DNA of 64,000 nucleotides, taken from assembly GCA_026770705.1 (NCBI GenBank), contig JANJGN010000021.1:90210001-90274000 (forward strand), read 5' to 3'. This DNA comes from Isurus oxyrinchus (lineage: Eukaryota). How positions within the stretch are numbered: position 1 is the first letter of the stretch; the number at the start of each line of letters is the position of its first letter. Made by a program: the position numbers and the translations under genes. Under the pieces are notes generated by a model. It did no database searches and was not told the origin of the DNA. It was given only the letters and a program-made list of their open reading frames with translations. Shown in pieces: positions 3,480-61,809 of this stretch.

Positions 3480-4870
3480 GAAGTCGATCTCATGCATAAC
3501 GTTTTACCAATGCAGTGTTAATTTCCAGCGTGCAATGCTTCAAAAGCATTATGGCACTTCCATCACTCTGAGGTACACTATCATCGGGCTAATCCAAAAT
3601 TTTTTACCAGTATCTTACGCTCAATCAACTCATGTGTGTCCATCGGTCATATTCAATACAAGTTTCTGATCCTCCAGTGCATGAATTAAGAATTATCACA
3701 CGTGTTTAACTTAATACATGTCTTCATCGCTACATAACATTCTAGTCTGCTCTAGACTTCCAAGCTCCTAATTATCCTCTCATGGCTCTCTGAGTGCCCA
3801 TGCATGCATTTTGCTGCATTTTTGGCAGTTATTTATTCAACAGTCTCAGAAATATCCACTGGACCTGCTTCCCTAAAACTCATCTCCTCTTCATGCTCTG
3901 CACATTAACAACTTTGTTAACATACATTTCGCTGGCCACTCTTACAATTTTGTTTGTCACTCTAACCATTTCCTAATCTAGCTCAGGTCATTTGTTTTTT
4001 CTGCTGATGCTTTTTGCGAAACAACTTGTTGTGGGCTCTAGGGTGATGATGTTCATTAATGTACACAACTGTTTGTGTTGTTGTTATTTTTCAACAGACT
4101 ATAAATATTATGCATGTATGGGAAATTCATCGAAGTTATTTAATGCAACCAAAATTCCCAATAAATCTGAAAGTTTATGATGTATTAACGTGAAAATAGT
4201 AGTCAACAAATGTAATGACATTGCTTTGATGCTCCCCATTTAAGACATCAAAATATCACAAAGCGCGTCACAGGAGCTTCACCTCTAACAATAATGACAT
4301 TGAGGCATCAAGTCAAACTTTGGGAAATTGAGCGAAAACTTGGCAAAGTGTAGGTTAAAGTTGGATAATATTTGTGGAGAATGTTGCCGATATTTAGCGA
4401 GACAAAACAGCCGAAAGCACATCCGGAAATCACTGGAAAGGAATGAAGTCAGAGATAGAGCAAACTTGTTGAGCTGCGGAGGAAGGGTGGAGCTGCTGGA
4501 CTGAACGATGTTATAGTTATATGGATTAGGAGGGGGTGAGACATTTTGCCACTAGAATGAAAACGGTACAATTGAGGTGCTTTGTACTGAGATCCAATGT
4601 GGTTACTGAACACAAATATGCTGGATTAATCGGACCTGGTAAGAACCAAGTCTTGAGAAGCATCTTGTTGCAGGAGATCGAATTTCTTGAGAGTATTAGG
4701 TGTAAGGCATCCAAAGTTGAAGGCAACAAAAACATGGGTGAGGTTTTCCTTCTGATCTATTTTGAGACGAAGGATGGCATAGCTGATAGTATGGGCGCTC
4801 AAGAGAAGGTCTTAGTAATGGAGACGATATGAGCTTGGAAGCTCAAGTAAGAATCGAAAATGTCGCTGGT
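3480..4870. mobile_element. Two highly decayed L2-like fragments (+ ~3480-3990; - ~4190-4870) flanking microexon 1
   Basis: Resemblance to L2 3' regions, judged by eye only. Confidence 0.35.
4098..4115 (+). CDS. Microexon 1 (18 nt): DYKYYA
   Basis: ttgttatttttcaacag|ACTATAAATATTATGCAT|gtatgg; phase 1-1; terminal T joins the next exon's TG to give Leu. First residue assumes an upstream G. Confidence 0.6.
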
Positions 4871-5309
4871 ATCTTGACATATTAGTTGCAAAAATTTGAG
4901 CCTGCTGTTCCATACATAAAATTATGAAATGAATATATAATGTAAGCCTTCACATTCACACCAAATGTTTGCACGGAAAATATTGTTGTATGCGATTTTT
5001 AAAAAAATGAATGTTAGTCTGGACACAGAATATATTTACATGTCTCCAAAGTTTATAAGTTCATAGACCCAAGCACATTTTTCTATTTTAGAATATCTAT
5101 AACATTTCATTTCATTGTAAAATAATTTACAATGCTCTAAAATTATGCATCACCATACCAGTGCCCCAATGACAATTACTTCTCTTAACATTGAACAAAG
5201 GCTTTAAAGCCTGCTGTTCACTCCTGTAGGTTAAACTTATGACCTCTTTATTAAAATCAATGTATCTAATTTAGCCTTACACTTAAACTGTTGTTTATTT
5301 TTCTAACAG

Positions 5310-5336
5310 TGAGGCAACTTCTTATGAAGGATAAAG
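5310..5336 (+). CDS. Microexon 2 (27 nt): (L/V)RQLLMKDK
   Basis: tgtttatttttctaacag|TGAGGCAACTTCTTATGAAGGATAAAG|gtaaat; paralog of 40397-40423. Confidence 0.85.
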
Positions 5337-6139
5337 GTAAATGAACAAAGACACGTTTTCCACTACAACAATTATTGACACCAGTTCATTAGGATTAGAT
5401 AGAGGAAACCAAGTGCTGCCATAGACAGTTCACGATATTCCAGTATTCATTTACATGGACGGGAAAATACGAGCTGTTTTTTTGCGTGAAACAGGAAAAA
5501 AACAACGTGTGGCATAGAATTCTAATTTTAGATCAAAGCATGAAAGAACATTCCACAATTTGTTGAAAAATCAACTATTATTGCAACCCAGAATGAAGAG
5601 CTAATGGCTGAACATTACGGCCCCTCCCCGACTTCGGGATTTTCACGGGTCGAATTTAATGGAGATTTGAACGGCTCGCTGCATATTGCGCCGATTGCCT
5701 GTAGATATGACACACGGGCGGATCCCTAAGATGCAGCCAATCAATTCCTGTCTGCGTTGTGCATCGTCAGAATTTTATGTTTACCACCTTCTATTTTATG
5801 GTAGGCGTTTTACCCAAGGCAACATGCTAATAGATCAATCATTTAACAGCGCCCATATTTTTGCCTTAAAATCGGAGGTGGTAATCTTGCAGGGCCTAAT
5901 ACTTTATCCTGTATAAAATCACCCCACTTTAGTCTGCACATTTCTGGATACAATACATGTAGTTTAAAAAAAACATAAAAAAGACTTACGACGGGGTACG
6001 GTATACCTGTAGTGCAAAGTAAGATGATAAATTTATAACATCTGCTTCAGCTGACTGAACCATTATCCATATTTAATACTGCCTCACCTCCCTCTTCCCA
6101 TTATGTACCACAAAGTCATCCAAGCAATTGTGTATTCCT

Positions 6140-8030
6140 TTTTTTTATTGTTTCACGGGATGCGGGCGCCGCTGCCAAGGACAGTATTTTTTGCTCATCC
6201 CTAATTGCCCTGCAGTCCACGTGGCGTAGGCACACCCGCAGTACTATTAAGGACGGCATTCCAGGATTCTTACCCAGCGACACTGAAGAAACGGCAATTT
6301 TATGACCCAGCAGCTGCGACCCCGAGGGCAGGGCCGTAAAATATGACGAGCCACACAAAAACCCATTGAGCTCGGTGCAATGATTAAATCTCACAGGTGG
6401 AAGGGGCCACAAATTTCGGCTCAATGGCCTAGTTAGCATTTCAGGCTGGTGTATGGCTTGGAGGGGAGCTTGCAGGTTGTATTGCATCCAGCCTTCTGCC
6501 ACTGTCCTTCAAGTGGTCGCTGGTTCAGAAGGTGCTGTTGAAGGAGCCGTGGTGAATTGCTGCAGTGCATCTTGTAGATGGCACACACTGATGTCACTGT
6601 CCGCTGGTGATCGAAGGGGTCGATGTTGACTGTGGCAGATGGGCTGCCAGTCAAGTGGCATACTTTGTTCTGGATGGTTCTTGAGCTTCTTGAGTGTTGT
6701 TGACGGTGCTTTCATCCAGAGTATTCCATCGCACCCCTCCATTGTACATGGTTGGTGGTGTTCTTGCTTTGGGAGTCAGTAGGTGAGTTATTCACTGCAG
6801 AACCACCAGCATCTGACGAACCCCCATGGCCACAATATTTGCATGTCTGGTACAGTTCAGGCTTTGGTCAATTGTTAACCCCAGGATGTTGGCATTCAGT
6901 GATGATAATCCCATTGAATCTCAAGGTGAGATTATTGGAGTCTCTCATTTTAGAGGCCCCCGTTGCCTATCTATCACTTGCGTGCCACAAATGTTAATTG
7001 CCACTAACCAGCCCAATCCTGACTGTTGCCCATGTCTTGCTGCATATGGTCACGGACTGTTTCCATATCTGAGGAGATGCAAATGGTGCTGAACATTATG
7101 TGACCATCAATGAAAATCTTCAGTTATGACCATGTGATAAAGGGGAGGTAATTGATGCAGCAGTTGCAGGTGTTTGGACCGTTGTCTCTCCTTTGAGAAA
7201 GTGCTGCCGTGGTGGCCTGTGCCTGATGTTTCTCACCTCCAACAACCACAATGATCTCACCTTGTGCTGGGTATGACTCCAACCGGTGCATAGCTTTCCA
7301 TTATTCCCATTGACTCCAGATTTACAAGTCTGTTTGATGCCGCACTCGTTCAAATTTTGTCTTGATGCAAACAGCAGTCAATCTCACCTCACCTTTGATG
7401 TCAACGCTTTTGTCCATGTTTGTGCTTAATTTCTAATGGCGTCTGGAGCCGAAAGGCCCTGGCAGACCCCAAACCAACCGACAGTGAACAGGTTTTTGTT
7501 GAGTGTCTCTTGATAGCACCCCTTCCAACACTTTGCTGATGATCGAGAGTAACCTAATGATGCAGTAATTGGCCACACTGGATTTATTTTGATTTTGCTT
7601 CTTGTGGACAGTATGTAGCTAATCAGTTTTCCACATATCGGGGTAGATGCCATTGTTGTAGCTGCACAGTACAATTATCCTTCAGTTCTATGCTAGAATG
7701 TTGTGAGGGCCACAGCCATTTCAGCATCCAATGTCTTTAATCGTTTCTTGATATGCCGTAGAGTAAATGGAACTGACCAGAAATTGTCACATCTGTTGCT
7801 GGGGACCTCAGGAGGAAGCTGAGATGGATCTACTCGGCACATATGACTGAAGATTTTTGCATTTAACTCAGCCTTGTATTTTCTGCTGAAGTGTTGTTGT
7901 GTCCTATCAATGAGGATGGGGTAATTTCTGAAGCTTCCTCCTCCTATTATTGTCCACCATCATTTATGACTTAAAAAGCCAGGACTGAAGGGCCTATAAC
8001 TAATCTGTTGGCTGTGGGATCGTTGAGCTG
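6140..8030 (-). mobile_element. 5'-truncated CR1/Jockey-group LINE, second family, antisense
   Basis: Family 3' terminus (antisense ...tttttgctcatccctaattgccct) shared with copies at ~21370, 44650, 50100, 52380, 61975; RT remnants. Confidence 0.7.
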
Positions 8031-8303
8031 CATAAGGCTTGTGTGGGGCTCCGTCCTGTGAATACTGTCAGAGGCCGATGCACATAGATGGATGAGACAA
8101 GTTTATTTACATGTTTGTTTCTTGTCGGGAAAAGAAAATTAGTAAATACCTGCAAGCTGCTTTCATCTTTATTCGATCCAGGTTTAAGTTTGAAAAGAAA
8201 AAAACACCTATATATTTAGCAAATAACTATTAGGAAAATCCAGTTCATCATAATGGAAGTGAAATAATCAATAATCTTGTTCGTTTTGACTTTGTTTTTT
8301 CAG

Positions 8304-8339
8304 AAATAGATTCACTGAAGGAAAATGTACAAAATGCCG
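8304..8339 (+). CDS. Microexon 3 (36 nt): EIDSLKENVQNA
   Basis: ttttgactttgttttttcag|AAATAGAT...AATGCCG|gtgagg. Confidence 0.85.
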
Positions 8340-9116
8340 GTGAGGGGAATCTTTTCGAAGTACACAGGGCACGACCTAAAGATACAAGCAACTATGCTTA
8401 ACAAGACCAGGTTCAACACGAATAAGTAACGCATTTTTGCAGGGAATACAAGTCCCTGAAAGCAGCAGGAGATTTATTTAAATCATCATTATTTTGGTGT
8501 TGTAGTCACACTTTAACGCAACCAACTGATTCAACAGTAGCTATTTAAAATGCACTGTATATATCATACGGTTTTTGAAAACAAATGCGTTGGAGCAAGT
8601 AGTTATTTCATAACATTTACATTCAATTAAATATTGAAAGTTGCAGTTGCAGACTTTCGCCCATCCAACCTGGACAACACGTTAGAAAGGATTACATTTA
8701 AAACAAGATTTTCTTTTGCCTGTAGCAAAACTAACAGTTCATACATCCATTGAAAGGCGATCCTGCTGACGAAACTTATAACTAGACAACGACTTGATAT
8801 TCGTATGTTCTCCCCATTTAGAATCAGTGTAATTCCCGAATTCGTCAAACACGAATTCCTTTACACTCGAACTTTAATAGTTTCAACTTCTGGAATTATT
8901 CAGAGTCAGCATTTTGTGTGAAACATTAATTCAAGATAAGGACAAAATACATAATTATTATTAAAGATAATCATATTTGTCACAATGAGATATAGCTCTT
9001 TTCTGAAGCCCAAACCTGACGAAGCAAAAGGACTGTGCATTTTCCAGTCAGCTTGAGCTTCTTGCCATTGATGTTAACGGAAACTAGATATGATGAAAAA
9101 CGGACTGCTGTTTTCC

Positions 9117-10484
9117 CACAGCTACCTCGACTACAGCTCCTCACACCCCGCTTCCTGTAAGGACTCCATCCCATTCTCCCAGTTCCTTCGCCTTCGTCGC
9201 ATCTGTTCCGATGATGCTACCTTCAAAAACGGTTCCTCTGACATGTCCTCCTTCTTCCTTAACCGAGGTTTTCCACCGACGGTCGTTGACAGGGCCCTCA
9301 ACCGTGTCCGGCCCATCTCCCGCGCATCCGCCCTCACGCCTTCTCCTCCCTCCCAGAAACATGATAGGGTCCCCCTTGTCCTCACTTATCACCCCACCAG
9401 CCTCCGCATTCAAAGGATCATCCTCCGCCATTTCCGCCAACTCCAGCATGATGCCACCACCAAACACATCTTCCCTTCACCCCCCTTATCGGCATTCCGT
9501 AGGGATCGCTCCCTCCGGGACACCCTGGTCCACTCCTCCATCACCCCCTACTCCTGAACCCCCTCCTATGGCACCACCCCATGCCCACGCAAAAGATGTA
9601 ACACCTGCCCCTTCACTTCCTCTCTCCTCACCATCCAAGGGCCCAAACACTCCTTTCAAGTGAAGCAGCATTTCACTTGCATTTCCCCCAACTTAGTCTA
9701 CTGCATTCGTTGCTCCCAATGTGGTCTCCTCTACATTGGAGAGACCAAACGTAAACTGGGCGACCGCTTTGCAGAACACCTGCGGTCTGTCGGCAAGAAT
9801 GACCCAAACCTCCCTGTCGCTTGCCATTTTAACACTCCACCCTGCTCTCTTGCCCACATGTCTGTCCTTGGCTTACTGCATTGTTCCAGTGAAGCCCAAC
9901 GCAAACTGGAGGAACAACACCTCATCTTCCGACTAGGCACCTTACAGCCTTCCGGTCTGAATATTGAATTCAATAACTTTAGGTCGTGAGCTCCCTCCCC
10001 CATCCCCACCCCCTTTCTGTTTCCCCCTTTTTTCCCCTTTTTTTTCCCTATAAATTTTATAGATTTTTCTTTTCCCACCTATTTCCATTATTTTTAAATA
10101 TTTTAAAATCTTTTATGCTCCCTCCACCCCCACTAGAGCTGTACATTGAGTGCCCTACCATCCATTCTTAATTAGCACATTCGTTTAGATAATATCACCA
10201 ACTTTAACTTTAACACCTATGTGTTCTTTTGTACCATTGTCACTGACATCTTTTGATGATCTGCTTCTATCACTGCTTGTTTGTCTACACAAGCACCTCT
10301 GTCTCTCTCTCTCTCTCCGCCCCCCCCCCACACACACACCTTAAACCAGCTTATATTTCAACTCTTTCTTGGACTCGAAATCAAGTTCTGTCGAAGGGTC
10401 ATGAGGACTCGAAACGTCAACTCTTTTCTTCTCCGCCGATGCTGCCAGACCTGCTGAGTTTTTCCAGGTAATTCTGTTTTTGTT
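9117..10484 (+). mobile_element. Young 5'-truncated Penelope-like retroelement (RT C-terminus, GIY-YIG endonuclease, 3' pLTR region)
   Basis: HSYLDYSSSHPASCKDSIPFSQFLRLRRICSD; Cys linker CPRKRCNTC; LVYCIRCSQCGLLYIGETKRKLGDRFAEH...GLNIEF. Single TGA at 9555-9557. Direct repeat CTGCTGTTTTCC at 9105-9116 and 10485-10496. Confidence 0.93.
10384..10422 (+). ncRNA. Minimal type I hammerhead ribozyme-like motif of the Penelope-like element (variant core CUGUCGA)
   Basis: AGTT-CTGTCGA-A-GGGTC-atgag-GACTC-GAAA-CGTC-AACT; stem I AGTT/AACT, stem II GGGTC/GACTC, putative cleavage after C10418. Confidence 0.65.
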
Positions 10485-10602
10485 CTGCTGTTTTCCTAGC
10501 TGTCGAGTTCGGTTGCTACCAGCTAGTCTCTATAAACGAATGTCATGGACTTCAATGCTGAAATGTGCATTCTATAAGAAAAAAAAATGTTAATTTTTTC
10601 AG

Positions 10603-10629
10603 AGATCAATCTACGTTTGAAGGAAAGAG
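10603..10629 (+). CDS. Microexon 4 (27 nt): EINLRLKER
   Basis: taattttttcag|AGATCAATCTACGTTTGAAGGAAAGAG|gtaact; paralog of 22828-22854. Confidence 0.85.
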
Positions 10630-12047
10630 GTAACTTAAATTAGTTAGGGATGTCGCTGCGACAATGGAGAGTAATCAATATTGTTAATTGTGCATTGCCA
10701 CTTGATTTAAAAATGTTGTAAATGGAAGTTTTTAAAAAAAAAAAACAAAACGTGTTATTTTTATGATGACTTATCTCACGCTGGTCAGTTCGGTGTCTTC
10801 CGCATGCCCCTTTGCATTTACGATAACTTAATCCTTACGGTGGAAGCTATCACTGCTGTTTAGCGAAAGCACTGCAACAATACTTCAGTAGAGTAAATGC
10901 AATTGTAGGGTTAAACACTGGAACAGTTTGCTACTATGTAATGGTGTCAGCTGATGACGATCAACGTTCCATTTTCAACTTGCTGGTCCAAAGTGAATGT
11001 AATGTTATCCGTGAACTTCCATTTGTATTGTTTTAATTAAAAAAAAAAGGATAACATCACCTTGTTATAAACACTGGTTACTTAATGCTGGTTTCATGCT
11101 GCAGTTGCAAATCAAAATGGATTAGCAGGAGTGCCCTACAGGCTGGATATGAAATATTCGTGTCCTCTCATCCAATCCACTCGATATTTAGTTGAGCTGA
11201 ATGCGGTGGAATCAAATTCAAGGCACACGATAACATCTCTTCTCCTTCCCCAAACAGACTTCCTGGTTTTCAGTGAACTTCACGTGGAACATTACGCGTC
11301 ATGCAATAGTTTGACAATATAATGGATTGGTTTTTGCTCTGAGCAATGAAGGAATTGTTTTTAACCTGTGTACAATCCGTCTAAGATTTTAGCCAGCTTT
11401 GGAGAAAGTACACTGGGAATCTAAAACCGATGAACAGAAGAACCCAATAAAATGGCTCTTCAGCTTATCAGGTTTAAGTATCCACAACACGATAGATCAT
11501 TTAAAAAACATGTATTTCGTTTATAATCAGAATTCATAAATCACATGCAATTTACTGAATTGATTTAGAGGTAAACATATGATTCAGGGAAATCATTAAT
11601 AAAATACAACTATAAAACTATGAAATATATATCAGGTAAAAAGGACTATAAAAGATAGTTTTATTCTGTGCAATGAGTCTATATTATGCAGATGGTTTGG
11701 AGCTCAACGCCAAAGCAAAAAATAAAGTTTTCAACATGTGGGAAAGCAATGCAAATTAAGCAAGGAATGATTTCATTCGAGAATTTCCTATGAAAACATT
11801 ACAAATTCATAGAATTGTCAGGAAAGGCATTCCCCCAGTATGAAACAAAGCATCTTTCTCACGTACACTATTGCATATAATGTCAGGAATTAATTGATAA
11901 ATAGGCACTGTTTCAAATATGAAAAAATAAACTTGCACCAGTTGGCAGTGATGAAAGGCTAAATATTGAAAAGCAACAGAAGAGAAATGTTGTAATGATG
12001 ACCTGTTTAAAATGTAAATTACAAAGGATTTTTAAAAAATATTTCAG

Positions 12048-12083
12048 AAGTGGAAGATCTGAAACTAGCTCTACAGAAACAAA
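12048..12083 (+). CDS. Microexon 5 (36 nt): EVEDLKLALQKQ
   Basis: tttaaaaaatatttcag|AAGTGGAAGATCTG...CAGAAACAAA|gtgaga; keeps heptad register; pyrimidine tract is weak. Confidence 0.75.
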
Positions 12084-12329
12084 GTGAGAAAACACTCATC
12101 TAGTATAATATGCCAATGTGTTTTTTTTTAAATCATTAAGTTGCAATTGTATTCATTGTAGTTTAGATTTGCATTTTGTCCAAAGCTGATCATTGTGCCT
12201 TTGAATTGCCAGTGTGGTAGCATGATAATGGTGTTAAGATTGGTATGATTCTCAAGCTATTACATTGTATTTACAGTACAGTAATAGACAAGAAAAGAAA
12301 AAAAAAAACACAATGGCAGGGTCTATGAT

Positions 12330-13260
12330 CCAATAGAACCTGTATCTTCCCTTATTCATTGAGAAAATCAACATTTTGTTAGTGCCTTTCCACGGATAGA
12401 CTAAACCAGCCATCCCAAGATGCATCTATGTTTCTCTATTCAAAAACTTAGTTTGATAGTGAGTTCCATATTTTAAACAATTTTTGAGTAACGAAGTTTC
12501 CCCTGCAATCTATATTAACATTCCTAGTACCAACATGTTTATGCCTCATGGCTTTGAGCCCTCCATAAAGTGGAAACTTAATATGTTCTTGTGCTCTATT
12601 TAAGTCTTACATAAAATTATATGCCTCTAATACGGTGACGATGTAGCCTTCCCTTTTCTGGTGGTTAGGAATAAAACTTAGCATTCTTTTCTGTCATGTT
12701 TTACAATTCAATTATCCTGTCATTTTCAAGGAACATGCCTGATACTGCAGGATTGCGTTCATAAGGTTATGACATAGAGACAAAAAAGGTGCAAATTATC
12801 CTAAATGTTTTAATGGACGAATTATACAGTTTTAAGATGCTTCCTCTGACTTCCATTGCTATACCGCTATAAATCAACGCTAGCACTTCATTTGTTTTGA
12901 TGGTGTTTAAGCTCTGCCAAAACTTTTGGTGGTGTGTTCATGTACCATTAGTTCCTTTTGCTCCTCAACAATTTTAGACACTAGCTGTACAAGTGATATG
13001 CAGCCTCATTGTTTCATCTGCAAAAATGTGCAATTTTACATTCACTTATCTTGATGGCATTTTGCAAATTGCATGCCCATTCCACAATTTTGAAATGCTG
13101 CATTTATTTTGCCGCAGTATTCCACAATAATTGCCTCCAATACCATTTCAACCTTTCTGCTTCACAGTCAGTTTTGATTAATACATTCTATATTTCTGCT
13201 TTGAAGCTTTACCTGGATAAGAAAGGATCCTGCACACTTTGTATAAAGTTCATATTTTGT
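12330..13260 (-). mobile_element. Very old CR1-like LINE 3' part
   Basis: Degenerate antisense CR1 3'/RT-tail pattern. Confidence 0.4.
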
Positions 13261-13439
13261 AAACTTCTTTGCAACCTCTTATTGGTTCTATTTTGCGGGC
13301 GGGGAGCTGATGTTAGCCACGCATCAAAGTCTGTGGAAGCCTCCTATTACTGTTGGTGTCAGTTATGGAAAAATTACCGGCATACTAATGATTGAAAACA
13401 TTGTATGTTCTACTAATAATCCAAGAATTGATCATCAAG

Positions 13440-13800
13440 CAATCAAAGTTGGCATCTGCTATGGAATAATGAGTGAGAATTGCACTGTCAGAAGTGCCGT
13501 GTTTCAAATGATAAGTTAGACCAGGTGGTCCTCGTAAGTATACATGATAATTCCCATGGCATAAGTTAGAAGAAGAGCGGATGAATTATTCAGAGTCTCC
13601 TGGCCAATATTTATCGATGAATCAACATCACTAAAGCAAATTTGCCACCATCAAGCCACAGTTTCTGATAACCTCTTCTGCACAAATTGCTTGCAGACTT
13701 CCATCATTTGTTCAGTGGCTACAACTCAAAATGCCATTAGCTGTTACCTGTTTTGGCACACCCTGCAGTTGTGAAAGGTGCTATAGGAAGGAAAGCCTTT
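13440..13800 (+). mobile_element. Deu-core (SacSINE1/AmnSINE-like) SINE remnant
   Basis: gcactgtcagaagtgccgtgtttcaaatga...gtctcctggccaatattta...caacatcactaaa; L2-like tail gtgaaaggtgctatag. Confidence 0.55.
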
Positions 13801-13929
13801 ATTTTTCTTATTTGTTTATTTAATTCATAGTAAAGGCATATGATTACATTTGTACACGTATTTACATAGTAAAGAGCAAGGCAGAGACCGATTAGGGACC
13901 AAAAGGGAGACCTACAAATGAAGACAGAA

Positions 13930-15620
13930 GAAATGAAAGAAATAAGTTTTGTTTTTGACCGTCCCTGGTATGTGAGCATCATTGGTAAAGTTGACATGGA
14001 TTGCCCATCAATAATTTCCCTTGAGAAGTTTGTAGCCTGCGGCCTTGTGGTACTGTTAAAATCCATGTGGAGTGGAAGCAACATACTTGAAAATCAGGAT
14101 GGTTAATGTCTTAATGGATATTTGTAAGTTAGGTGACTCCTGTTCATTTACTGCCATTGTTCCTCTCGTTTACAAATATCGAGGGTATGCAAGGCATTGT
14201 CGAAGGATGATAATGTTCTGTTGCAGTGCACCTTGACATTGTGAGCTCCTTGTGGATGGAGTTTTTGTTTCACTGGTGAATGCAATGTTAGCCAAGCGTG
14301 TTGCTTTGGCCAGGGTAATATCGCAGATCTTGAATGTTGATGGAGCTACATTTACCCCAGCTAGTGGAGAGAAATCCATCACCTTCCTGACTTGGACCTT
14401 GTTGCGAAGACGTTGGGAGACAAGATGTGAGTTCCTCGCAAAAGTATTACCACCCTTGACCTTCTCCAGAAAACACTTCTGGGCGTATGATGCAGGAAAC
14501 GTATGAATGTTCAAACATATGGAAACAGTTGCACCTAGGGACCTGTACCCAGGAATTTCTGCAGCGATAACATAGGGATGAAAATATTTCCATCCAACAG
14601 ACACACCAATCTTACTTCATGCTATATGTGAATCCAATTAATAGAAGGCTTCATCATGGTAGATTGCCGTTAACTTTAGCAATCCTGAGGCTTATTGATG
14701 CCACTCTCCGACAGAGACTTCACATCGCAGAATTTACTCTGACTTGGCCGTTTTTGTTCAGTTTTTTTAATGCATGCTAGGATCAAGACTAAAGCCACAC
14801 TGTATAGAGGAAGCCTAAACGTAACAGAAACTGAAAAATGTAGCGTGTGTGTTTTATTTTTTCTGAAGAAGTGTAATTTAATAGCACTGCTAACGTGTCT
14901 CCAATCTGTTAAATATTGAGGGTATACTAATGGGGTGGCACTCAGCTTAGTCGAATTGATATTTTTTTAATAGGTATTAAATACCTGGGCAACGGTTGTG
15001 TAGATGCTACTGCCATAACTGAGCAGGTAGTGGATGAACCACGATTGCAGTGCTCTGATCAGGTCCATTCATTGTAGCATCGCTTAAATATGCTCATTTC
15101 CATTGTACCTCGATTTTCTGGCATGCTTCCTATCAGCTGGTGTAACGTAACTAATTTGGGACGAAATATTGTGCTTTGCCTTGTGCTGCGCCTCACATGC
15201 TGTCCAACATTCCTAATTGGAGCAGATTTGGACGCTTGTCCTGATGATAACAGAAGAGTGAGCTATAGTACGGCCGTGAGGTTACAGAATGTTTAGGATT
15301 AATATTTTTCTCTGATGCACATGTCCCACAACATACCATGGATGTCCAGTTTCAGTGTATTCATTTGATCTGAATCTAGTGCATTTAGCATGGTGGTCGT
15401 GCCAAGCAACAGGATGGGGGGTGTCTTCAATATAAGCACCAAACTTTGTCTCAACAGGAACTGTGCCATTGTCATTTTGCGCCAATACTTTAATTTACAG
15501 ATACATCTGCGACTGGTAGGCTGATGAGGGCTGCAAACTAGGCAGTTCCTCTCAGGTTGGTTCTTTCGTCAATTATCACAGGCTCAGCCTGGAAGATATC
15601 TGCTTGAGGACTCGGCCAGC
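13930..15620 (-). mobile_element. Decayed LINE of the second CR1/Jockey-group family
   Basis: Segments alignable by eye to 6500-7700 (e.g. ttgttgatggagctacatttaccccagc-like and ggtactgcgctctgatcagg-like stretches). Confidence 0.5.
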
Positions 15621-16464
15621 TTGGCGAAAGTTAGTACCACGAAGCTGCACTTGAGAATGGACACTGAAGTTTAGAACTCCGTATGACTTTATCAGGTTGG
15701 ATGCAAACAAAAGAGGATTTGTAATGATTAATAGTGACCTTGATATTGCTGGATTATTTAACAAGTCTACATGTAACATTGTCTTCGCTATAGAGCGATG
15801 TCTTCCATCCTTACATGCATATATTAGAATCTAGTTCCACAGCAAAACCGTTTACTGTTCACTTCTTTCTCAAATTGCTCAATAGTTAGCCAGTGGAGTT
15901 AAACCTTTCCAAAAAATAAAAGTGGATAAGGATATGAACTGCCAGTTAATAGGATTCGATTGATGCATCAGAAATGTAGATGTTAAAATGAAACTAGCAG
16001 TGACCTCTTTACTAACATCTGGTGACTGTTGACAAAATTATTTAAACGGCCCCACAGATGCCACAAGGAATAACATAACGCCGCCTTAATATCCTATAAA
16101 ATCAATGGGAATCATAGTAATGAGACGTATAAAACGGGCTACCACGTAGTTAAACATCCCTTTAACTTTAATAATAAGTCAACATTATAACAACATATTT
16201 TTTGAATGTTATGAATATATATAATTCAGCATGGAATACAAATTTAATTTGAGCAATGTATCAAACGGCTGCCCGATGTTCCTTTGAATTCCACTAAATG
16301 ACTCACTATCAGACCCTGCACACAATAATGGAACTTCGGCACTTCCCATTCCGATTTTCTAGTCAATTTACATCTGCTTTGACTCACTTTTACAATGACT
16401 ATTACATTTGCATTGTCTTGTCTTTAATAATTGAACATTCTGACCCCTTTCTCCCTTTTCATAG

Positions 16465-16479
16465 TTGAAAAAGAGAAAG
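16465..16479 (+). CDS. Microexon 6 (15 nt): (I/V)EKEK
   Basis: ctgacccctttctcccttttcatag|TTGAAAAAGAGAAAG|gtaagc; branch-point-like CTGAC and near-consensus splice sites. Confidence 0.85.
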
Positions 16480-16749
16480 GTAAGCTTAACGATGAGTTAT
16501 GGTTACACAAACGTCCATTTAGTTTACTTGCCAAGTGGGTATCAATTTACTGTTGCAATTACATTTTTCACTGTGACCTATTGTGCCTTACTTCTGATCC
16601 TATTTCGTATGTCCCTATGTTCGTATGTGATGATGCCTGTCACTTCCGTTACTATAATTGCTATGATGTTGTATTAATCATCACTATCATTATCAATGTT
16701 GTTACAGAACACCGGAAAGCCGATGGTGAGCATTAATTACATTTTTGCT

Positions 16750-17500
16750 ATGAATTATGGAACTTTGGTCTGTCTGAACCTGTCATGTCAGGGAGTACGC
16801 TATTACAGACAGGTTGTCCACGGTTTTCCATCCAATGCAATCGTTGCATGTTAGGTCTCCGAATACATATCAATAAACATCTTAGTTGTATGGCACGTCA
16901 TTCAGCATCAAAAGGTACATCAAGAAGTTCCCACAAACCATGAGGTAAGATCATCATTGTACTGTGGGAGACTTCGGGGCTCAGAGTTCGCTTCAGGGTC
17001 CAAATATCTGAGATGAATTGCAGGTCGAAAGGTTCGAGATGCTGGCGGCTGGAGCTTGCAATCGATTTGTCCCAGGAGGCGGATGATGAAGATACCGCCT
17101 TGAAAATCTCTTCCAAGTTCCTCTCCTGCCAGTCCCTTCCCATTAGTGATGCTGATGATACCGAAGGCGGGTGGAACAATAGCAGGCCCATAGCAGCAAA
17201 ATATTGGTATGCCTCAGAGGTGACTTCTACTGAAGCAGTCAGTTTGCGTATTCATTCCTTTTTGCTAGGAACAACAATGTAAACTCATGACAAAAACGGG
17301 AAACACCCTGTTGCAGCACATCTGCTATTGTGGGTGTCTTTCCCATCATGTCCTGGCTCGACGGTTTCCCTGAATGCCAACTGAAATTTCCAGTTGTTGG
17401 ACAGAGCTTTAAAGGAAAGGTGAACAGAACCTAATATATTGCCCAGTGCTGCATGAAAAGTAACCAGTTCCAGCTCCACTTACATCCCAAAGAAAATCAC
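16750..17500 (+). mobile_element. Highly degraded RTE-clade LINE (endonuclease/linker remnant)
   Basis: Frameshifted traces in the expected order: MNYGT(W), GV(GF)AITDRL, KIIIVL(G)DF.ARV, then a D.E..W linker. Confidence 0.4.
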
Positions 17501-18471
17501 GAAGATGGGAACATTTCGTGTCACCTACCTGACATGACTTCCCTTCGTTGTTTTAACGAGCACTTCGCTAAGAAAAAGAGTGAACCAAGGAGAAAAAAAA
17601 AGACAGGCCTGTTTTGCGTTAGAGGGAATATGACATTTTATGAGAAAGGGTTTGGGGGGGCGGGAGGGGGGTGTGGAGGAGATTGGGAGGATGCCGGGAG
17701 TGACAGAGGTGGGAATGATGACGCAAGTTGGGAAATCATCCAAAGTTGAAGCGGAACGAATTGCAAATGATAACAAAAGGCATTTTATCAGCATTTAAGT
17801 TGTGTTTACTTTGCAACTTTGGCTATCATATAAAACATAATTGTTCACGAAGGCAGCTGCACCAATAGTAATGTGGCTACCTTACACGGTTAGTAGTTTT
17901 TATGAATTAGAAAGTTATTTCAATAAATTTAAAGTGTTCAAAATACAGTTCAACACATAACATAATTTGAGGACTGAGGAAACAGATGTAGAAATTAACA
18001 GTGCTAGGAGATCATGGTTGTAGAGGCACCATGCTTTTTAGCGGGTTGCACGTCCTACAAACTTGAATATTAAGGATAGACACTTTGGTGAGAAACTGAG
18101 AAATAAGCGAACAGTGTTCAGCCGGAAGTTTTAGTTATCAATAATTAGAGAAAGGTTTATATTGTGGAAACATGTGAATAAGCTGGGAATTGTTACATTT
18201 CCCTTTCCTTGCTCAACTCATAGTGCATTTTTCTGAGGACACACATGTCACTTGCTTTGCCCTAAGTCCAGCTGAATATTGGCGCAGACTGGGGGTATGA
18301 CATGGTAATGCAATTCTCCCAATGTTGCTCTGGGTTCTTTATTAGGGATTTGTGAGATTCGAAGAAATTATATAGAAATAATCTGTTTATTTGAGCATAA
18401 TATGTTTACAGAGTATGCCTGGAAACACTATGCAAGAAATCACGTTTTTGTTTTGCTTTTCCAAATTATAG

Positions 18472-18498
18472 AAGAAAAGATACGTGAAACTACATCAG
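18472..18498 (+). CDS. Microexon 7 (27 nt): EEKIRETTS
   Basis: tttttgttttgcttttccaaattatag|AAGAAAAGATACGTGAAACTACATCAG|gtgaac. Confidence 0.75.
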
Positions 18499-18789
18499 GT
18501 GAACCCTTCTTCTCAATGTAGGGCGTTCATTGCTGTTATGTGCACATAAAAAACACAGACAGCAGGCCGGAGTGATATTGAAATGAAAATACAGAAACAA
18601 TTGAAGTAACATCATTCGGGTTAACAGAATTGGTATATCCTTTTGCAACTGGTTGATTTGTGATTAAAAGAGGCCTAGGACGTGGCCCGTGAATCTTAGA
18701 ATCCAATGGAATTTAACGTGGAAAATTTTTGCTAGAATGTGCAATTCGTAAATCTAGATTTATATTGGGGGTGCCAGGCCATAATCCGC

Positions 18790-19815
18790 ACTATCCATTC
18801 CTTTCCATTTCCACATTGCTTCTCCTGGTAAGGGTCGCGACGGCAATAACCTGAGCAAGGCCAACCAGACTTCTCTTTGCTCAGCCACAGATTCCTGCTC
18901 CTGCTGGGGCATTCCCAGTCATTCGCTGGACAACTGAACTATATAATCCCTCCAGCATGCCTGGGTCGGCCTTGAGGTCTCCGCCAAATGGGCCGTGTTG
19001 TAACAGTTCTAGTGGGAGCCTACGAGGGGGCATCCTTATCAGATGCCCGAACTATCTCAACTGGCACCTCTGGATCTGAAGGAGCTGCGACTATGTCCGA
19101 GACTCTCCCACAATGCTGAGCTTCTCACTCTACTCCAGACACCTTGCCCAGCAACCACATGGAGAAACATAATTTCCGTTATGTGTACCCGCAATCTTAT
19201 CATTTCGGTCATTATCCACAATTCATGACCATAGGTAACTGTGGGGTTGTAGATCGACTGCTGACTTAGGGCTTCGCTGTAAAGCTTAGCTCCAGCTTAA
19301 CCACCATGGACCAGTAGACCCTCTGAAGAAAAGCAGCCATCAGAACAATATGTTGGTTCATCTAATGATCCCCTCTGCCACCACTCACACACAAGGCCCG
19401 AGTTAATTCAACTCCTCCACCAAGGGAAGCTGTACCTCCTTCACCTGAAGAGAGCAACCCACCGTTTTCTGGGGGAGTTTCATGACCGCAGGTTTGGAGG
19501 TGCTGATCCAGATACCAGCTGTGTCACAGTTGACTGTGAAACCTTTGAGTTCACGCTGGAGATCACAGTCGGTTGAAGCATGAAGCACAACGTCATCGTC
19601 AAACAGAAGAGATGCCACCCTGAAACCCCGAAATAGGATAATTTCTGTGTCTCGACTAGGCCTTGATATTATATCCATAAAAATCAGTAATAGGAGTGGA
19701 AACAAGATGCACTCATGGCAGTGATCAACGTCCAACTTGATCAAATTGAACTAAATGCCGAGAATGCGGACACAACTTTTGCTGCAAGAATAGGGGGACT
19801 TGACAGCACGCCGAA
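18790..19815 (-). mobile_element. Rex3/Expander-like RTE element, 3' half (RT C-terminus and tail)
   Basis: ORF 19403-19744: IFMDIISRPSR...FRGFRVASLLFDDDVVLHAS...AGIWISTSK...LQVKEVQLPLVEE matches the Rex3/Expander RT; ccatt-type short-repeat tail at ~18790-18812. Confidence 0.85.
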
Positions 19816-19829
19816 GCAGCACCTCCAAG

Positions 19830-20263
19830 AATCGTAACTTTGTGGTGGTGGAGGGGCTGTGGGGGCTGTTGCTGTAATCTAAGGAACCTTCGAACTACGT
19901 CCTCTGCAGATTAGAACTCCTGGTAGTGTCTCCCTTGGCAAACAGGTCCAATGTGAGGTTCCAGGCAAAGAGTAATTCACCAACGAACCCAGGATGGTTC
20001 TAGATATAACACAATGACCCTTGACCAGAACTGGGCACACCCCTGGACCCAGGCCTGGGGTGTGTGCCTGATGGCAATGCCACTCACGTATTATGTCTGG
20101 GCTCAGCCCAAAATGGCTGCGTGCAGTTGCGTTATGGGCCCACCGGCTGCACGGCAACAGGTGGGGGTCGGGTGTGATGTCAGTATGGCAGTGAGCAAGA
20201 GCGGGACAGATCAAGACACACCTAGACCTTGGCGATGGAAACTGGCTCTTGGGACGTGGAATG
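19830..20263 (+). mobile_element. Inverted 5' end (5'UTR and ORF start) of the same Rex3/Expander-like element
   Basis: Expander-like 5'UTR (ctcctggtagtgtctcccttggcaaacaggtcc...) ending in WKLALGTWN, the start of the AP endonuclease. Confidence 0.75.
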
Positions 20264-21194
20264 GCCCCATAAACTGCTCTAATAACACTGAATTGCCATC
20301 TGGATCAGGGAAAGGATTAGACCTGACCTTAATTCCACAGAGCAAAGCAAGGGAAGTTTTAAACATTCAGCTTAGAAGACGCCTTGATTTTCTCAATCGA
20401 TGTTACAGTTTGTGCCTCATTGCAATTTTCCTGGCCAAATATGCTTCCAAAAAAGGGGATATTAGCATGCATTTGCGCAAGGAAGTGATGCAGATTAAAT
20501 GTTACATGTGAGACACATTGTAAGGGAAAAGCTCGTTAAGAGTATTTCCTCTGTAAGAATGGGTAGATTTCTAGAGAAGGGGTGTTGGCTAAGCGCAATA
20601 GATAGGGCACTCGAATTATCTGCGCATCACGGGGTGCAATCCTATTACTTTTTGCCCCAACGATCTTTATTTTTATCAATTTTGATTCCACCCCCTCTGC
20701 ATTAACAAACCTAATAGTATTGTGACCAACAGGAAGCTGGATCAGCAAGCTCATTCCAGGCGATAGGACCCAAGGATGAATTTCGCTGTGAGCCAGAATA
20801 TCAGTTTCCAAGCCTTAAGATCAAAGCAATGGTACGATTCTAAATCTAAATCCTGCCAGATTTCAGAACGAAGCAGGAGTTACATTCCAATCATAGACAT
20901 CTGCAGACTTTTGGAAAATGGATTAACCAATTTCTGTTTAAAGCCAGATATTGGTTCACTGATGACATTCATAGGAGTTCACCCACAACGTTCATTCTTT
21001 GCAAGACTCCACGAAAGGCTTTAAGGCATTACCAGGCTTCACGTCCAAAACAGCCCAACAAAATCCGAATTCATACCCGTATTAGCTAAAGTTAAACAAC
21101 ATAAATGGCATGTACTACCCAATGGTCTTAGTTCATTCCAATGCTCACTTGCATTTAATAAGCCGCAACATTTAATTTTCTCCTTTGCTTTCAG

Positions 21195-21230
21195 AAATGG
21201 AGAAAATAGAAGCAATTCGTCAAGACGTCG
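21195..21230 (+). CDS. Microexon 8 (36 nt): EMEKIEAIRQDV
   Basis: ttttctcctttgctttcag|AAATGGAG...GACGTCG|gtagga; 7/12 aa identical to 38477-38512. Confidence 0.88.
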
Positions 21231-21369
21231 GTAGGATTTGATTTCGATCGATTATCTACAAGAGTGAAAAACAGGGGAGCTTCATTTCCATCAGATACAA
21301 AGTGTTACCTTTGCCTTTCAGTGCTAGTGCAAGACAAAAAGCATCTGCTCGACCACACCTTAAAAATTT

Positions 21370-22827: not shown

Positions 22828-22854
22828 AGGCGCTATTGCGTTTAAAGAATGAAG
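22828..22854 (+). CDS. Microexon 9 (27 nt): EALLRLKNE
   Basis: ctaacactatctgtttcctcacag|AGGCGCTATTGCGTTTAAAGAATGAAG|gtaggt. Confidence 0.88.
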
Positions 22855-23623: not shown

Positions 23624-23650
23624 AAATTAGTATACTTCGGAAAGCAATCG
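23624..23650 (+). CDS. Microexon 10 (27 nt): EISILRKAI
   Basis: cctttctattttcttcag|AAATTAGTATACTTCGGAAAGCAATCG|gtaaga. Confidence 0.88.
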
Positions 23651-31204: not shown

Positions 31205-31240
31205 ATATCGAAACATCGAATACATCATTGAACATCAAAG
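31205..31240 (+). CDS. Microexon 11 (36 nt): DIETSNTSLNIK
   Basis: actgcttttaaattttag|ATATCGAA...ATCAAAG|gtgtga; resembles 61774-61809 in exon end and acceptor. Confidence 0.7.
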
Positions 31241-38167: not shown

Positions 38168-38194
38168 CGGCCAATGTTAGACATATTTCAAAAG
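38168..38194 (+). CDS. Microexon 12 (27 nt): AANVRHISK
   Basis: ttttcctccctttctcactttcag|CGGCCAATGTTAGACATATTTCAAAAG|gtgaag. Confidence 0.78.
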
Positions 38195-38476: not shown

Positions 38477-38512
38477 AACTCGAAAATATTGAAGCTTTCA
38501 AAATGGATGTTG
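38477..38512 (+). CDS. Microexon 13 (36 nt): ELENIEAFKMDV
   Basis: tgttttcatttgcattcag|AACTCGAA...GATGTTG|gtgaga; paralog of 21195-21230. Confidence 0.88.
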
Positions 38513-40396: not shown

Positions 40397-40423
40397 AGAA
40401 ACAGTTACAAAGAAAAGATAAAG
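40397..40423 (+). CDS. Microexon 14 (27 nt): EKQLQRKDK
   Basis: ttttaatttcaattattttcgtag|AGAAACAGTTACAAAGAAAAGATAAAG|gtaaca; paralog of 5310-5336. Confidence 0.85.
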
Positions 40424-43129: not shown

Positions 43130-43156
43130 AAATTGAAGAACTCCGTTGCCAGAAAG
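43130..43156 (+). CDS. Microexon 15 (27 nt): EIEELRCQK
   Basis: catttaaattttaatgtag|AAATTGAAGAACTCCGTTGCCAGAAAG|gtgagg; paralog of 23624-23650. Confidence 0.82.
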
Positions 43157-47839: not shown

Positions 47840-47866
47840 CAGATGCCCTCGTTGGGAGAGTATCAG
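47840..47866 (+). CDS. Microexon 16 (27 nt): ADALVGRVS
   Basis: ttttgtcattattttacag|CAGATGCCCTCGTTGGGAGAGTATCAG|gtgtgt; NAGNAG acceptor could give a 24-nt form. Confidence 0.7.
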
Positions 47867-52140: not shown

Positions 52141-52149
52141 TTGCCCCTT

Positions 52150-53879: not shown

Positions 53880-53903
53880 AAAGTCAAGCACTGCTAGATT
53901 GTG
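53880..53903 (+). CDS. Microexon 17 (24 nt): ESQALLDC
   Basis: ttttttcattttctttatttctag|AAAGTCAAGCACTGCTAGATTGTG|gtaagg. Confidence 0.78.
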
Positions 53904-54400: not shown

Positions 54401-54427
54401 AAAAAAAGCTATGCGCTAAATCATTAG
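54401..54427 (+). CDS. Microexon 18 (27 nt): EKKLCAKSL
   Basis: tttctgaattttgtttgcag|AAAAAAAGCTATGCGCTAAATCATTAG|gtgagt (consensus donor); ExxLxxK class. Confidence 0.82.
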   Translation, partial: KKSYALNH

Positions 54428-57189: not shown

Positions 57190-59515
57190 GTAGAACTGCA
57201 TTGAACAGGACTTTCTTAGTCAGCACGCAACAAGAGCAATGAGTGGAGGCAAAGTTCTGGATTTAGTATTCGGAAATGGCGCTGGGCAAGAGAACGATGT
57301 AGCAGTGGGGGACCACTTTGGGGATAGTAACCACCATGCTGTTAGTTTTAGGATCGTTATGGAAAAGGGCAACGACAGGAAAGGCGTAAAAGTTCTAAAT
57401 TTGGCAAATACAAATTTTTCAAAGCTGAGAGGTGAGGTTGCAAGAGAGGCCTGGATTCAGTGTTTAGATAGAAAAACTGCAGCAATTCAATGTGATGCAT
57501 TCAAAGGCAAAATACTAGTGTAAGCATGTGCCAAAAAAGACAATTGGTGGTACTGATAAAGCTTGAGCCTGCGGTTATTCAGAAGCACATATGCCAAGAT
57601 AAATCAGAAAAAAATCTTCTGACAGTCACAAAAGACATAATGTGAAAAGAAATACCGTTTGTTAAAATCAATGAAAATCTTAACATATTTTACCAGTACA
57701 TTAAGACCAAGGCAATAACTAAAGAATGGTTAGGGACATTCACAGATGTACATGGCAACTTGTGTGTTGATGCAAACTATGTGGGCAGCGCTGGTAATGC
57801 CGGCTTTGTCCTTATTTTCACTATGGAGAGGGGTGATGCACATATTCTTGTTAAAGAGGAGCGGTGTGAAATATTAGATATACTAAGCATCGTGAGAGGC
57901 AAAGTATTAGAGAGAGTGGCATCCTTGAGGGTGGTAAGTCACAGGGGTACATAGATTGTATCCCAGGATGTTGAATAAAGCCCGGTGGCAAGTAATGAAT
58001 GCTCTGAGAATCATTTACCAATCCTCACTCACAAAGGCGAAACTGCAGAGGATTGGATGTCAGCAAAATAGTACCATTATTTTTAAAATGTGGAAGGGAT
58101 AGGCCAGAAAATTGTAAACACTCAGTCTGACTACGGTGGTGGGCAAATTATTGGATACAATTGTGACAGACAGGATAAACTGTCACGTAGAAAGACACCA
58201 AATGATCAGGGATAGTCTGATGGTTTTATGAGGGGGAGATCGTGTCTTATCAACTTGATAGAATTTTTAATGAAGTAACAAGGAGGACTGATGAGTATAA
58301 TATAGTAAATGCTGCCTAAATGGATTTCAGTAAGGGTCTTTACAAGGTTCCTCTTGTCGGGCTAGTCAGGAAAGTGAGATCTCATTGGATACAGGGGAAG
58401 GTGGCATGGTGCATCCAAAACTGGCTCAGTGATAGGAACCAAAGGTCAGTGGTTGATGGATGCTTTTGCGAATGCCAAACAATTTCCATTGGTGTTGCAC
58501 AGCGGTCAGTGTCGGGGCGTTTGTTGCTTGATTTATTTATTAATGATTTCGAATTACATGCAGGAGGCATGATTGGGAAATTTGTAGTTGACACAAAAAC
58601 TGGCCATATCGTTGTGAATTTAGCTTGTAGCGGTCAGAATAATATCAATGGTTTGCCTGAGTGGGTGGAGAAGTAGCAAATGGAATTCAATCCAGAAAAG
58701 TGGGAAGTAATGAATTTGGGAAGTGCAATCAAAGCAAAAGTGAATGCTCAATAAACGGGAAGCTATTGAAAGGGGTTGAGGGAGTGAGAGTCCTTCGAGT
58801 GCATGCCCACACTCTATTGAAGGTGGCATGAAAAACGGACAAGGTTTTCACGAAAACAGATGGAACACTTTCCTTTATTGGTTGTGGTATTGAATACAAA
58901 AGCAGATATGTATTGTTGGAACTGTATAAAACGTTGGTTAGGCCACAGTTGGAATTTTGTGTGCAATTCCGGCCACCATATTACAGGAAAGACAGAATTG
59001 CTCTGGGAAGAATGCCGAGGCGATTTACAAGAATGATGCCAGGGCTGGCAAACTGCAGCGCTGAGGAGAGGTTGATGAGCCTAGGGCTTTTTCTTCGCAT
59101 AGAGGAGGCTAAGGGGTGACCTAATTGATGAGTACAAAGTTATGAGGGGCCAAGATAGGGTAGGTAGAGTATACATATTTGCCCCCAGCTGAGGGGCAAA
59201 TTACGAGAGGGCTTAGATTTAAGGTGATCGGTAGATAGATTAAAGGGGAGATGATGAAAAACTTTTTAACCCAGAGCGCGGTGGTCATCTGGAATTCACT
59301 GCCTAGGTTGGTGGTTGAGGCTGAGATGCTCAACTAATTAAAAAGAAATAGTTGGATCTGCATCTGAAGCACTGTACCCGACAGGGATAAGAACTGCATG
59401 CTGGAAGAAAGTGAGACTAAAATGAGTGACTAGTTTTGTTTTTAGCTGGTGCAGACACAATGGGTTGAATAGCCTCTTTCTGCATCGTAACATTTCCATG
59501 GTTCAATGGTTCTAA
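57190..59515 (+). mobile_element. CR1 LINE ORF2 (EN C-terminus to 3' tail), decayed
   Basis: LDLVFGN..VGDHFGDSNH; MDFSKGLYKVP..WIQNWLSDRNQR; LYKTLVRPQLEFCVQF; tail ccatggttcaatggttct. Confidence 0.9.
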
Positions 59516-60418: not shown

Positions 60419-60565
60419 AACTTCACTGTTATCCCGTTTATGTGTGTGCGTGTACGTTTGTGCATTTGTGTGCAATTCAACACAGTGCGCTTCAATCAAA
60501 TCAAACAGTGGGAAGTTAAATAGAAGACCGATTGCCCACATTTGTTGATTCTCTAGTCACATAAA

Positions 60566-61410
60566 GGCCCAGATCTTTTGCCTCCAGATGGTCGTACCTG
60601 GACGTGCCTCGACAAGTGTGCTGGGGGATCCCTTGGACTCTCCTTGCACTGTCTACATGGGAATTTCTCGAGGAATTTCAAACTCCGCTGAGTCTGAAGC
60701 CCTTGGGATCTCTGATTAAAGGTTGGAGAAATCCGATGTTTCTGACTCATTTAGCACAATGGTTACTCAGGAAAGAATAAAATGCTGAAATCCCATTCAA
60801 CCTCAGAGTTAACTATACTCGTGATCCTCCTCCCTAAAACCGCTGAATCCCCATTGAACATTTGACTAACCCCGTGACTAATTCTCGAATCTTCTACAGC
60901 CACTAACACCCGGCAATCTCGCAATCCTGACTTACCTGCAAACACCCAGATAGCTGAAACGCTCAGCTACCATCCACAACTCGAATACACTACAAACCCT
61001 CTTCAGCACCCACCCCTACTACCATACTACCACGCCTGCCTAGAGCCCACTCCCCTGTCTACAAACGCTACCCACCCCGACTATCCCCACCCCCAACACA
61101 CCCACCACCAGCTTATAACAGCCTACACCTAACCCCCGAATACTTAGCATCCCCGATAAACCCAGACGCTTTACTTAGACTTCGGCACCGCTACTGTCCT
61201 AAAGCCCGACACATCGATTATCACCCACTTCCTTACTACCCCCCTACCACTCCACACTGCCAGCTAATCCTCCGTATCCCACTATAAAAAACATGTCTGT
61301 TATCCCCACAAGCTTACCCAGTTACCCACTGTAGCCCCGCATGTTAGCCATGTACCTTCTGTCACTAGGTGCTAAAACTGGCATTTAAGCAAAGGAACAT
61401 AGAACCTTAT
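60566..61410. repeat. Unclassified interspersed repeat with C/A-rich degenerate minisatellite
   Basis: cccgactatcccc/ccactacc-type units; shares a 37-bp motif with 63166-63202. Confidence 0.55.
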
Positions 61411-61773
61411 CTGTCAACGGCAGCTGGGTGATGATAATAGGGTCCAGGCCTTGCTTCCCCGACGCTGCTGCACTCTGAGAGATGACCGCAAGCAGCAGAT
61501 ATGTACCACATTTCTCAGCAGGCGCGATTCAGTAGTCCCGACAAGAAATGCAGAGCTCACATGTAAGTAAGTAAGAAGGCGCAAATGACTATCTGACAAT
61601 TTTTGCCTGTGCTCGGAAGATTCGAGTCATGATTTCTCAGAGTAATCTACTATTTTTGACCCTTAGGACTTTATTTCTGTGAAACATTTAATGAAATTGC
61701 AGAAAATAGATCAGAATCTGAAATGTTTGCCACGTTGCTATCAAAATACATATTTGTTTTTCTTTAAATTCAG

Positions 61774-61809
61774 AATTAGAAAACGTGAAACGAGATTTGC
61801 AAGTCAAAG
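61774..61809 (+). CDS. Microexon 19 (36 nt): ELENVKRDLQVK
   Basis: tttgtttttctttaaattcag|AATTAGAA...GTCAAAG|gtatgg. Confidence 0.85.

Follow-up and report, generated by a model that had tools for sequence, protein, structure and literature searches.

To what gene, if any, do the minute exon-like segments strewn over a 64,000-nucleotide (nt) stretch of the Isurus oxyrinchus genome belong? This stretch, here called the window, covers C21:90,210,001-90,274,000 (C21 being contig JANJGN010000021.1) within a 4.98-Gb genome. A preliminary description made from its letters had listed 19 microexons, proposed that they encode a long coiled coil, and likened them to the heptad exons of chicken BG proteins and butyrophilins. 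The reading to which we give slightly better than even chances is that the window forms the middle of a ~620-kb gene, named gene A, in a five-unit shark gene cluster. The 120-plus phase-1 microexons of this gene would encode a soluble coiled-coil rod without the C-terminal B30.2 domain of its family, a spacer or scaffold probably pairing with B30.2-tipped paralogues. Positions are those of the window, and those beyond its ends are given as the C21 position minus 90,210,000.

All 19 segments were located with the lengths listed for them (18, 27, 36, 27, 36, 15, 27, 36, 27, 27, 36, 27, 36, 27, 27, 27, 24, 27 and 36 nt), and every one is bordered by AG and GT. Joined in phase 1 they contain no stop, against 14 and 13 stops in the other two phases; segments 2 to 19 total 525 nt, and coding sequence amounts to 0.94% of the span, so that the arithmetic of the preliminary description (525 nt, less than 1% coding) holds. 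Splice-site strength is given in bits from generic matrices not trained on the window, and a peptide model was trained on 174 exons outside it. A comparison of the two strands, which had been proposed as a check, gave strong splice pairs of 27 or 36 nt in 12/54 cases on the plus strand and 2/60 on the minus strand (Fisher p=0.003); 40 Markov resamples gave 0-5 such pairs, compared with the 12 real ones. When 904 kb of the array are taken together, pair lengths have their sole peaks at 27 nt (66 plus, 14 minus) and 36 nt (81 plus, 18 minus), with 5-25 pairs at each other length. A stop in phase 1 was found for 12 of these 147 plus-strand pairs, compared with 101 in phase 0 and 75 in phase 2.

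The microexons reach far beyond the window. In the region analysed (C21:89,560,001-91,370,000; 1.81 Mb without gaps or N) the array begins at about -538 kb and extends to +1,134 kb (1.7 Mb) on a single strand, and between -487 kb and +1,138 kb there are 254 model exons on the plus strand and one on the minus strand. Our initial reading, one 1.6-Mb gene ending in a B30.2 exon at +1,138 kb, was dropped after B30.2 relics and start exons were found. Because of these decayed B30.2 copies, collinear paralogy and homologous ATG exons, the array is divided, as judged from sequence, into five paralogous units on the same strand. Unit 1 is short and has an intact B30.2 exon at -487,772. Unit A, or gene A, runs on the plus strand from about -442 to +180 kb, contains the whole window as an internal slice and has no recognisable B30.2. 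Unit B (+205 to +587 kb) is followed by a B30.2 relic. A small dead unit retains a degraded start-exon copy at +647,918 and a decayed B30.2 at ~+680,830, and unit C (+709 to +1,139 kb) has an intact B30.2 exon at +1,138,264.

The start exons of units B (+206,484..+206,615, ATG at +206,498) and C (+710,219..+710,350, ATG at +710,233) are homologous and 132 nt long; both measure 118 nt from the ATG to a phase-1 donor, and a non-coding 63-nt exon precedes the ATG exon in each. A search of the genome for homologous ATG exons returned only these two and the degraded copy at +647,918. Collinear paralogy links the exons from +394 to +586 kb with those from +970 to +1,112 kb: their chain score is 456, whereas the maximum in eight shuffles is 174. 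Gene A carries an older copy of the B/C rod module, at 42-43% identity; its chain scores are 131 and 109, and shuffling gave maxima of 110 and 89. Ten window exons compared with their positional paralogues in unit C gave a BLOSUM sum of 175, while 5,000 random draws from the family had a mean of 48 and a maximum of 149. Gene A and unit 1 also have 5' DNA in common. The acidic N-terminal head of B and C, encoded by the ATG exons, contains a conserved tyrosine motif, DEYINIG, which we take to be a possible phospho-tyrosine docking site. Elsewhere in the cluster, unit B holds a duplicated block at +273,400 to +282,100 with four broken exon copies, the sister blocks being intact; an open reading frame (ORF) with C2H2 zinc-finger-like repeats, apparently degraded, lies upstream of unit 1 at -599,094 to -598,519; and an apparent terminal exon at +1,112,925 turned out to be an ordinary 27-nt exon.

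Both intact B30.2 exons have phase-1 acceptors. A DNA profile built from three terminal exons that are intact recovered decayed copies at +617,935 (expectation value E 9.5e-21; exon placed at +617,979) and at +680,832 (E 4.6e-12). From -487 kb to +615 kb, a profile search revealed neither a B30.2 exon nor a relic of one. Decay was judged by in-frame stops, of which the first relic (~+617,979) has 7 in 69 codons; DNA-level lesion counts are noisy, the intact control also having indels. The 3' half of the decayed B30.2 exon recurs, in incomplete form, at +618,694 to +618,946. Gene A appears to have lost the C-terminal B30.2 domain of the family: it has no B30.2 terminal exon of its own, which is a family feature, and would acquire one only by read-through to +1,138 kb.

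Such read-through is the core of an alternative that we hold to be possible, at a clearly lower probability. Units A, B and C would be conjoined in frame, with the inner B30.2 exons decaying into introns, into a 1.58-Mb gene of more than 300 microexons encoding a length-tunable rod of ~3,000 residues with a single B30.2 tip at +1,138 kb. The last microexon of A would join the 132-nt exon of B, and that of B the 132-nt exon of C, the dead B30.2 exons being skipped. The frame would be kept, since both 132-nt exons are phase 1-1 and stop-free from their acceptors (8.5 and 9.3 bits); the predicted junction codons are sense, and the net exon excesses of A, B and C total 306-339. The B30.2 exon and last microexons of A and B are decayed or missing with the upstream microexons still under selection, and a search for a new terminal exon of A found none. 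However, B and C each retain the non-coding upstream exon, its donor being strong (9.8 and 9.6 bits), and their ATG is at the same position. In the unit B relic the acceptor is preserved; a stop follows after 18 codons, and a hexamer of polyadenylation type lies ~570 nt in, so that it would be a usable terminal exon. The in-frame state of the two start exons traces to a single ancestral event, and no homologue of 1,655-4,725 amino acids (aa) was found in a weak search with the rod.

As a gene of its own, gene A comprises 124 model exons and 1,332 codons, with a net plus-over-minus excess of 116-123, from a candidate start exon at -442,438..-442,362 to a last recognisable microexon at +180,364. 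The ratio of nonsynonymous to synonymous substitution (dN/dS) is 0.46 in 24 recent duplicate pairs (p=0.003), whose synonymous difference is 0.17, and 0.43 in ten pairs outside the 36-nt tandem run (p=0.024), and these sequence comparisons show moderate purifying selection on the exons of gene A. Copies found through their intron flanks in A, B and beyond number 77, of which 70 are intact against 53 expected. The tandem run lies at -328,500 to -262,600 and consists of ~35 near-identical 36-nt exons spaced by ~1.5 kb, with no 27-nt exons called between them; it appears to be a recent tandem expansion of a 12-residue unit.

It seems improbable to us that gene A is decaying or recently dead, its terminal exon lost and its microexons persisting through the slow change of shark DNA. 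The lack of a terminal exon, several weak acceptors and the partial death of neighbouring units agree with such decay, as does the divergence of the window exons, which exceeds that of every other copy (identity to the others 42-43%). The recent duplicates, at a synonymous difference of only 0.17, nevertheless still show the reduced dN/dS given above, only one of seven broken copies lies in A, and the relic with 7 stops in 69 codons is far more decayed than the window exons, though those were selected as stop-free.

Several points weigh against gene A as a separate gene under selection. Its start exon is only a candidate, and the stretch from +180 kb to +205 kb yielded no terminal exon; a B30.2-like stretch near +200.9 kb is a weak match (E 0.11). 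The stop-free, phase 1-1 state of the 132-nt exons of B and C belongs here as well. Peptide likeness was one basis for selecting the exons in the dN/dS and paralogue tests, a choice that favours low dN, and a dN/dS near 0.45 denotes moderate constraint only. Many of the 70 intact copies are the model exons themselves, and seven of the 77 are broken, just one of them in gene A. No database protein covering gene A was found; the rod search among proteins of 519-1,654 aa gave four, and shorter proteins were not searched. No RNA joining any window exon was found in the contigs of eight RNA or RNA-guessed runs. At least 17 such runs matched at shares of 0.06-0.10, with contigs apparently from relatives, and eight were aligned. 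Four of these, on window positions 3900-23800, were swamped by repeats and gave no microexon junction among the matches listed; the other four, on the last exons of unit B, showed no depth in the bins of +581,844, +585,380 and +586,592. Because the aligned pieces were ~50 nt or longer, exons of 27-36 nt may not align, and the RNA result is taken as no evidence either way.

Of the 19 exons claimed in the window, 18 are supported; the first is probably false, and one further exon was added. The segment at 4098..4115 is probably no exon because it would break a conserved Met junction. The last letter of the 27-nt exon at -6,375 is A and the exon at 5310 begins with TG. Units B and C show the same junction, with nothing between the exons, in their paralogous pairs, and so does a catshark protein (XP_038671249.1), where the 4098 segment has no match. 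The added exon, 16708..16725 (18 nt), was missed in the preliminary description; it is a shortened paralogue of the 27-nt exon at +1,027,153 and occupies the matching place in the order.

The window exons are all on the plus strand and in phase 1. The peptide model is positive for 12 of the listed exons and negative for 38168, 38477, 47840 and 53880. Paralogues or the catshark protein support 5310..5336 (27 nt; peptide model, collinear paralogues in B and C, 6/8 residues identical to catshark), 8304..8339 (36 nt; strong sites and a model score, with paralogues in units B and C), 18472..18498 (27 nt; model score, paralogues), 21195..21230 (36 nt; model score, 7/11 identical to catshark), 22828..22854 (27 nt; strong sites, paralogues), 23624..23650 (27 nt; sites, model score, positional paralogue), 40397..40423 (27 nt; model score 13.5, paralogues) and 61774..61809 (36 nt; model score 12.1, paralogues). 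Splice sites together with the model score support 10603..10629 and 54401..54427 (both 27 nt) and, with modest values of each, 31205..31240 (36 nt). Two exons have weak acceptors: 12048..12083 (36 nt; -4.9 bits), with a peptide score of 11.6, and 43130..43156 (27 nt; -1.1 bits), whose DNA likeness to its paralogues is 80/135 positions, against 65 at the next best place. Positional paralogy supports the latter as well as 38477..38512 (36 nt), which has collinear paralogues in B and C. For 16465..16479 (15 nt; 8.5/11.1), 38168..38194 (27 nt), 47840..47866 (27 nt, with an alternative acceptor 3 nt inside) and 53880..53903 (24 nt), the support consists of splice scores. The exons had been placed in AT-rich gaps between transposable elements; none of 18 exons compared with the repeats overlaps one, and local GC content is 0.31-0.43 against 0.408 for the window, so that most lie in AT-rich sequence but 47840 and 53880 do not. 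High-copy repeats were observed at 6441-8021, 9114-10496, 27391-29079, 44645-45595 and 58001-59376; coverage by the searched sequence is at least twofold over ~19% of the window, and several of its long ORFs overlap such repeats.

Relatives of the cluster were found in other cartilaginous fishes. The B30.2 domain at +1,138 kb matches catshark XP_038671249.1 (945 aa) with 65% identity, and further relatives of it are present in other sharks, rays and a chimaera. The rod of the catshark protein tiles onto 63 predicted exons of unit C from +890 kb to +1,134 kb, with 581/775 residues, 74% identity and 46/62 junctions abutting. The catshark model is evidently truncated, since its Met1 falls within a microexon, ~178 kb inside unit C. 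The preliminary description had expected such genes to be misannotated and to come from an elasmobranch. Both expectations were confirmed: the basking-shark RefSeq model consists of the B30.2 alone (175 aa, 93% identical to the +1,138 kb domain), the catshark model begins at an internal microexon, and a ray model is named 'golgin A6-like'. That ray protein, XP_069775418.1, was considered as an orthologue of unit B and rejected, being equidistant (19 sites with B, 25 with C). Internal 9-residue blocks differ in 4/9 pairs of RefSeq isoforms, and ray isoforms differ by 8, 8, 11 and 12 residues in 4/8 comparisons; these models presumably rest on RNA and, as models of paralogues, lend splicing of the array indirect support.

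The rod module and exon bricks are shared with XP_038671249.1 ('zinc-binding protein A33-like'), XP_038672308.1 ('TRIM39-like'), XP_069775418.1, XP_078422387.1 and XP_042191567.1. The rod module of gene A is homologous and collinear with those of a cartilaginous-fish family of microexon coiled-coil/B30.2 proteins. The automatic models fall in the same B30.2 clade (100/100), and their isoforms omit exon-sized blocks. They differ from gene A in being truncated relatives or orthologues of units 1, B or C, none having been found that covers gene A, and their names imply RING, Ig or golgin features that are absent from the proteins. No paper on this family appeared among the matches listed in a literature search of limited journal coverage, without supplements.

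The B30.2 domains also place the locus in its surroundings. Of 308 candidate SPRY and PRY matches in the genome, 150 were scored, and most of these lie on C21 at 82-118 Mb; the locus sits inside this B30.2 supercluster. In a midpoint-rooted tree, whose bootstrap is not fully settled, 11 B30.2 rows of the family and 22 rows of BTN/TRIM type fall on separate sides of one branch (100/100). Five further B30.2 exons close to the shark microexon family occur at C34:2.7-7.5 Mb; one of them was analysed, is intact and clusters with family members from skate and catshark, and the skate relative opens with a signal-peptide-like stretch.

Known families with a comparable architecture were then compared by their domains. 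Across the 1.81 Mb, a profile of immunoglobulin (Ig) variable and constant (IgV/IgC) domains from 11 relatives reached a best E of 0.074, with a negative motif scan, and a RING/B-box profile from eight TRIM relatives reached 0.12. No transmembrane exon candidate was found in A, B or the small unit, and the candidates in unit C (4, donors 3.0-3.7 bits) and unit 1 (8) are weak. A scan of 1.01 Mb for signal-peptide first exons gave 54 hits on the plus and 30 on the minus strand, none convincing. Since no Ig, transmembrane or RING/B-box exon was found, gene A is taken to be no BG, butyrophilin or TRIM gene.

The claimed BG/butyrophilin-type architecture stands as a likeness of design and fails as membership, given the missing domains, the 27/36-nt exons and the separate B30.2 clade. 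In PMC4046983, chicken BG is described with a single IgV and 13-36 exons that measure 21 or 24 nt, and the zipper protein corresponds to the BG tail; the domain orders of BTN, BG and TRIM are given in PMC8813856. BG and the zipper protein share with gene A a long heptad tail from many tiny exons, and BG resembles the shark locus in its tandem same-strand cluster with gains and losses, and gene A in lacking B30.2. Unlike BG, gene A has neither IgV nor a transmembrane region, and its at least 124 phase-1 exons peak at 27 and 36 nt instead of 21/24 nt, a comparison of exon design only. As described in PMC4046983, PMC8813856 and PMC12841164, butyrophilins such as BTN3A1 resemble units 1 and C in having heptad exons followed by a B30.2 exon. 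The shark units differ from them in lacking IgV/IgC and transmembrane exons and in a rod of hundreds of residues rather than a few heptads; the family B30.2 forms a separate clade, and gene A has none.

TRIM proteins with B30.2 share with the shark family a soluble coiled coil plus B30.2, and the locus lies among B30.2 genes, whereas the shark units have no RING or B-box and build their coiled coil from microexons. Enterophilins of mammals combine a soluble long leucine zipper with B30.2, an architecture that resembles units 1 and C by description only. Enterophilin-1 is mentioned by name in PMC13749957. That the array forms the cytoplasmic tail or extracellular neck of a BG/butyrophilin-type membrane receptor is in our estimate very improbable. 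The likeness of design, the position in the B30.2 supercluster, BTN3A1 as the closest solved B30.2 structure (E 8e-23), the tyrosine motifs in the head of B and C, and the hydrophobic stretch that opens the skate relative XP_055510696.1 speak in its favour. Against it stand the Ig and RING/B-box searches, the lack of a credible transmembrane exon behind any start exon, and the lack of an Ig domain in the named relatives inspected.

The microexon-encoded helical rod proposed for the window was borne out as a design. Hydrophobic residues occupy positions 1, 4 and 8 in 36-nt exons and position 3 in 27-nt exons, and a pair of a 36-nt and a 27-nt exon makes three heptads, other orders disrupting the register. 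A single-sequence structure model of the catshark protein gave a chain of long helices at low confidence (mean predicted local distance difference test score 55). Each exon would act as a frame-neutral brick, symmetric in phase 1-1, and because of this neutrality the rod could be lengthened by exon duplication and tuned by exon skipping, as the shark and ray isoform models suggest. The product of gene A as a separate gene would be a segmented coiled coil of at least 1,300 residues, predicted to be soluble and cytoplasmic, that may serve as a long spacer or scaffold. By analogy, the B30.2-tipped products of units 1 and C would be its most likely partners, bound through the rod module that they have in homologous form, much as the BG-tail 'zipper protein' acts without an ectodomain.

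These results describe a cartilaginous-fish family that is truncated or misnamed in annotation. It lies among immune B30.2 genes, and exons of 27/36 nt supply nearly all of its very long rods. Its evolution can be followed at this locus, where whole genes and exons were duplicated, the binding domain was lost and genes may have fused. If gene A is a separate gene, a tip-less rod has been kept under selection, in parallel to the BG zipper protein. If the units are fused, the result would be among the most exon-rich vertebrate genes, near the exon count of titin, which has 363 exons. The locus is in addition a natural test bed for the splicing of hundreds of microexons across introns of several kilobases.

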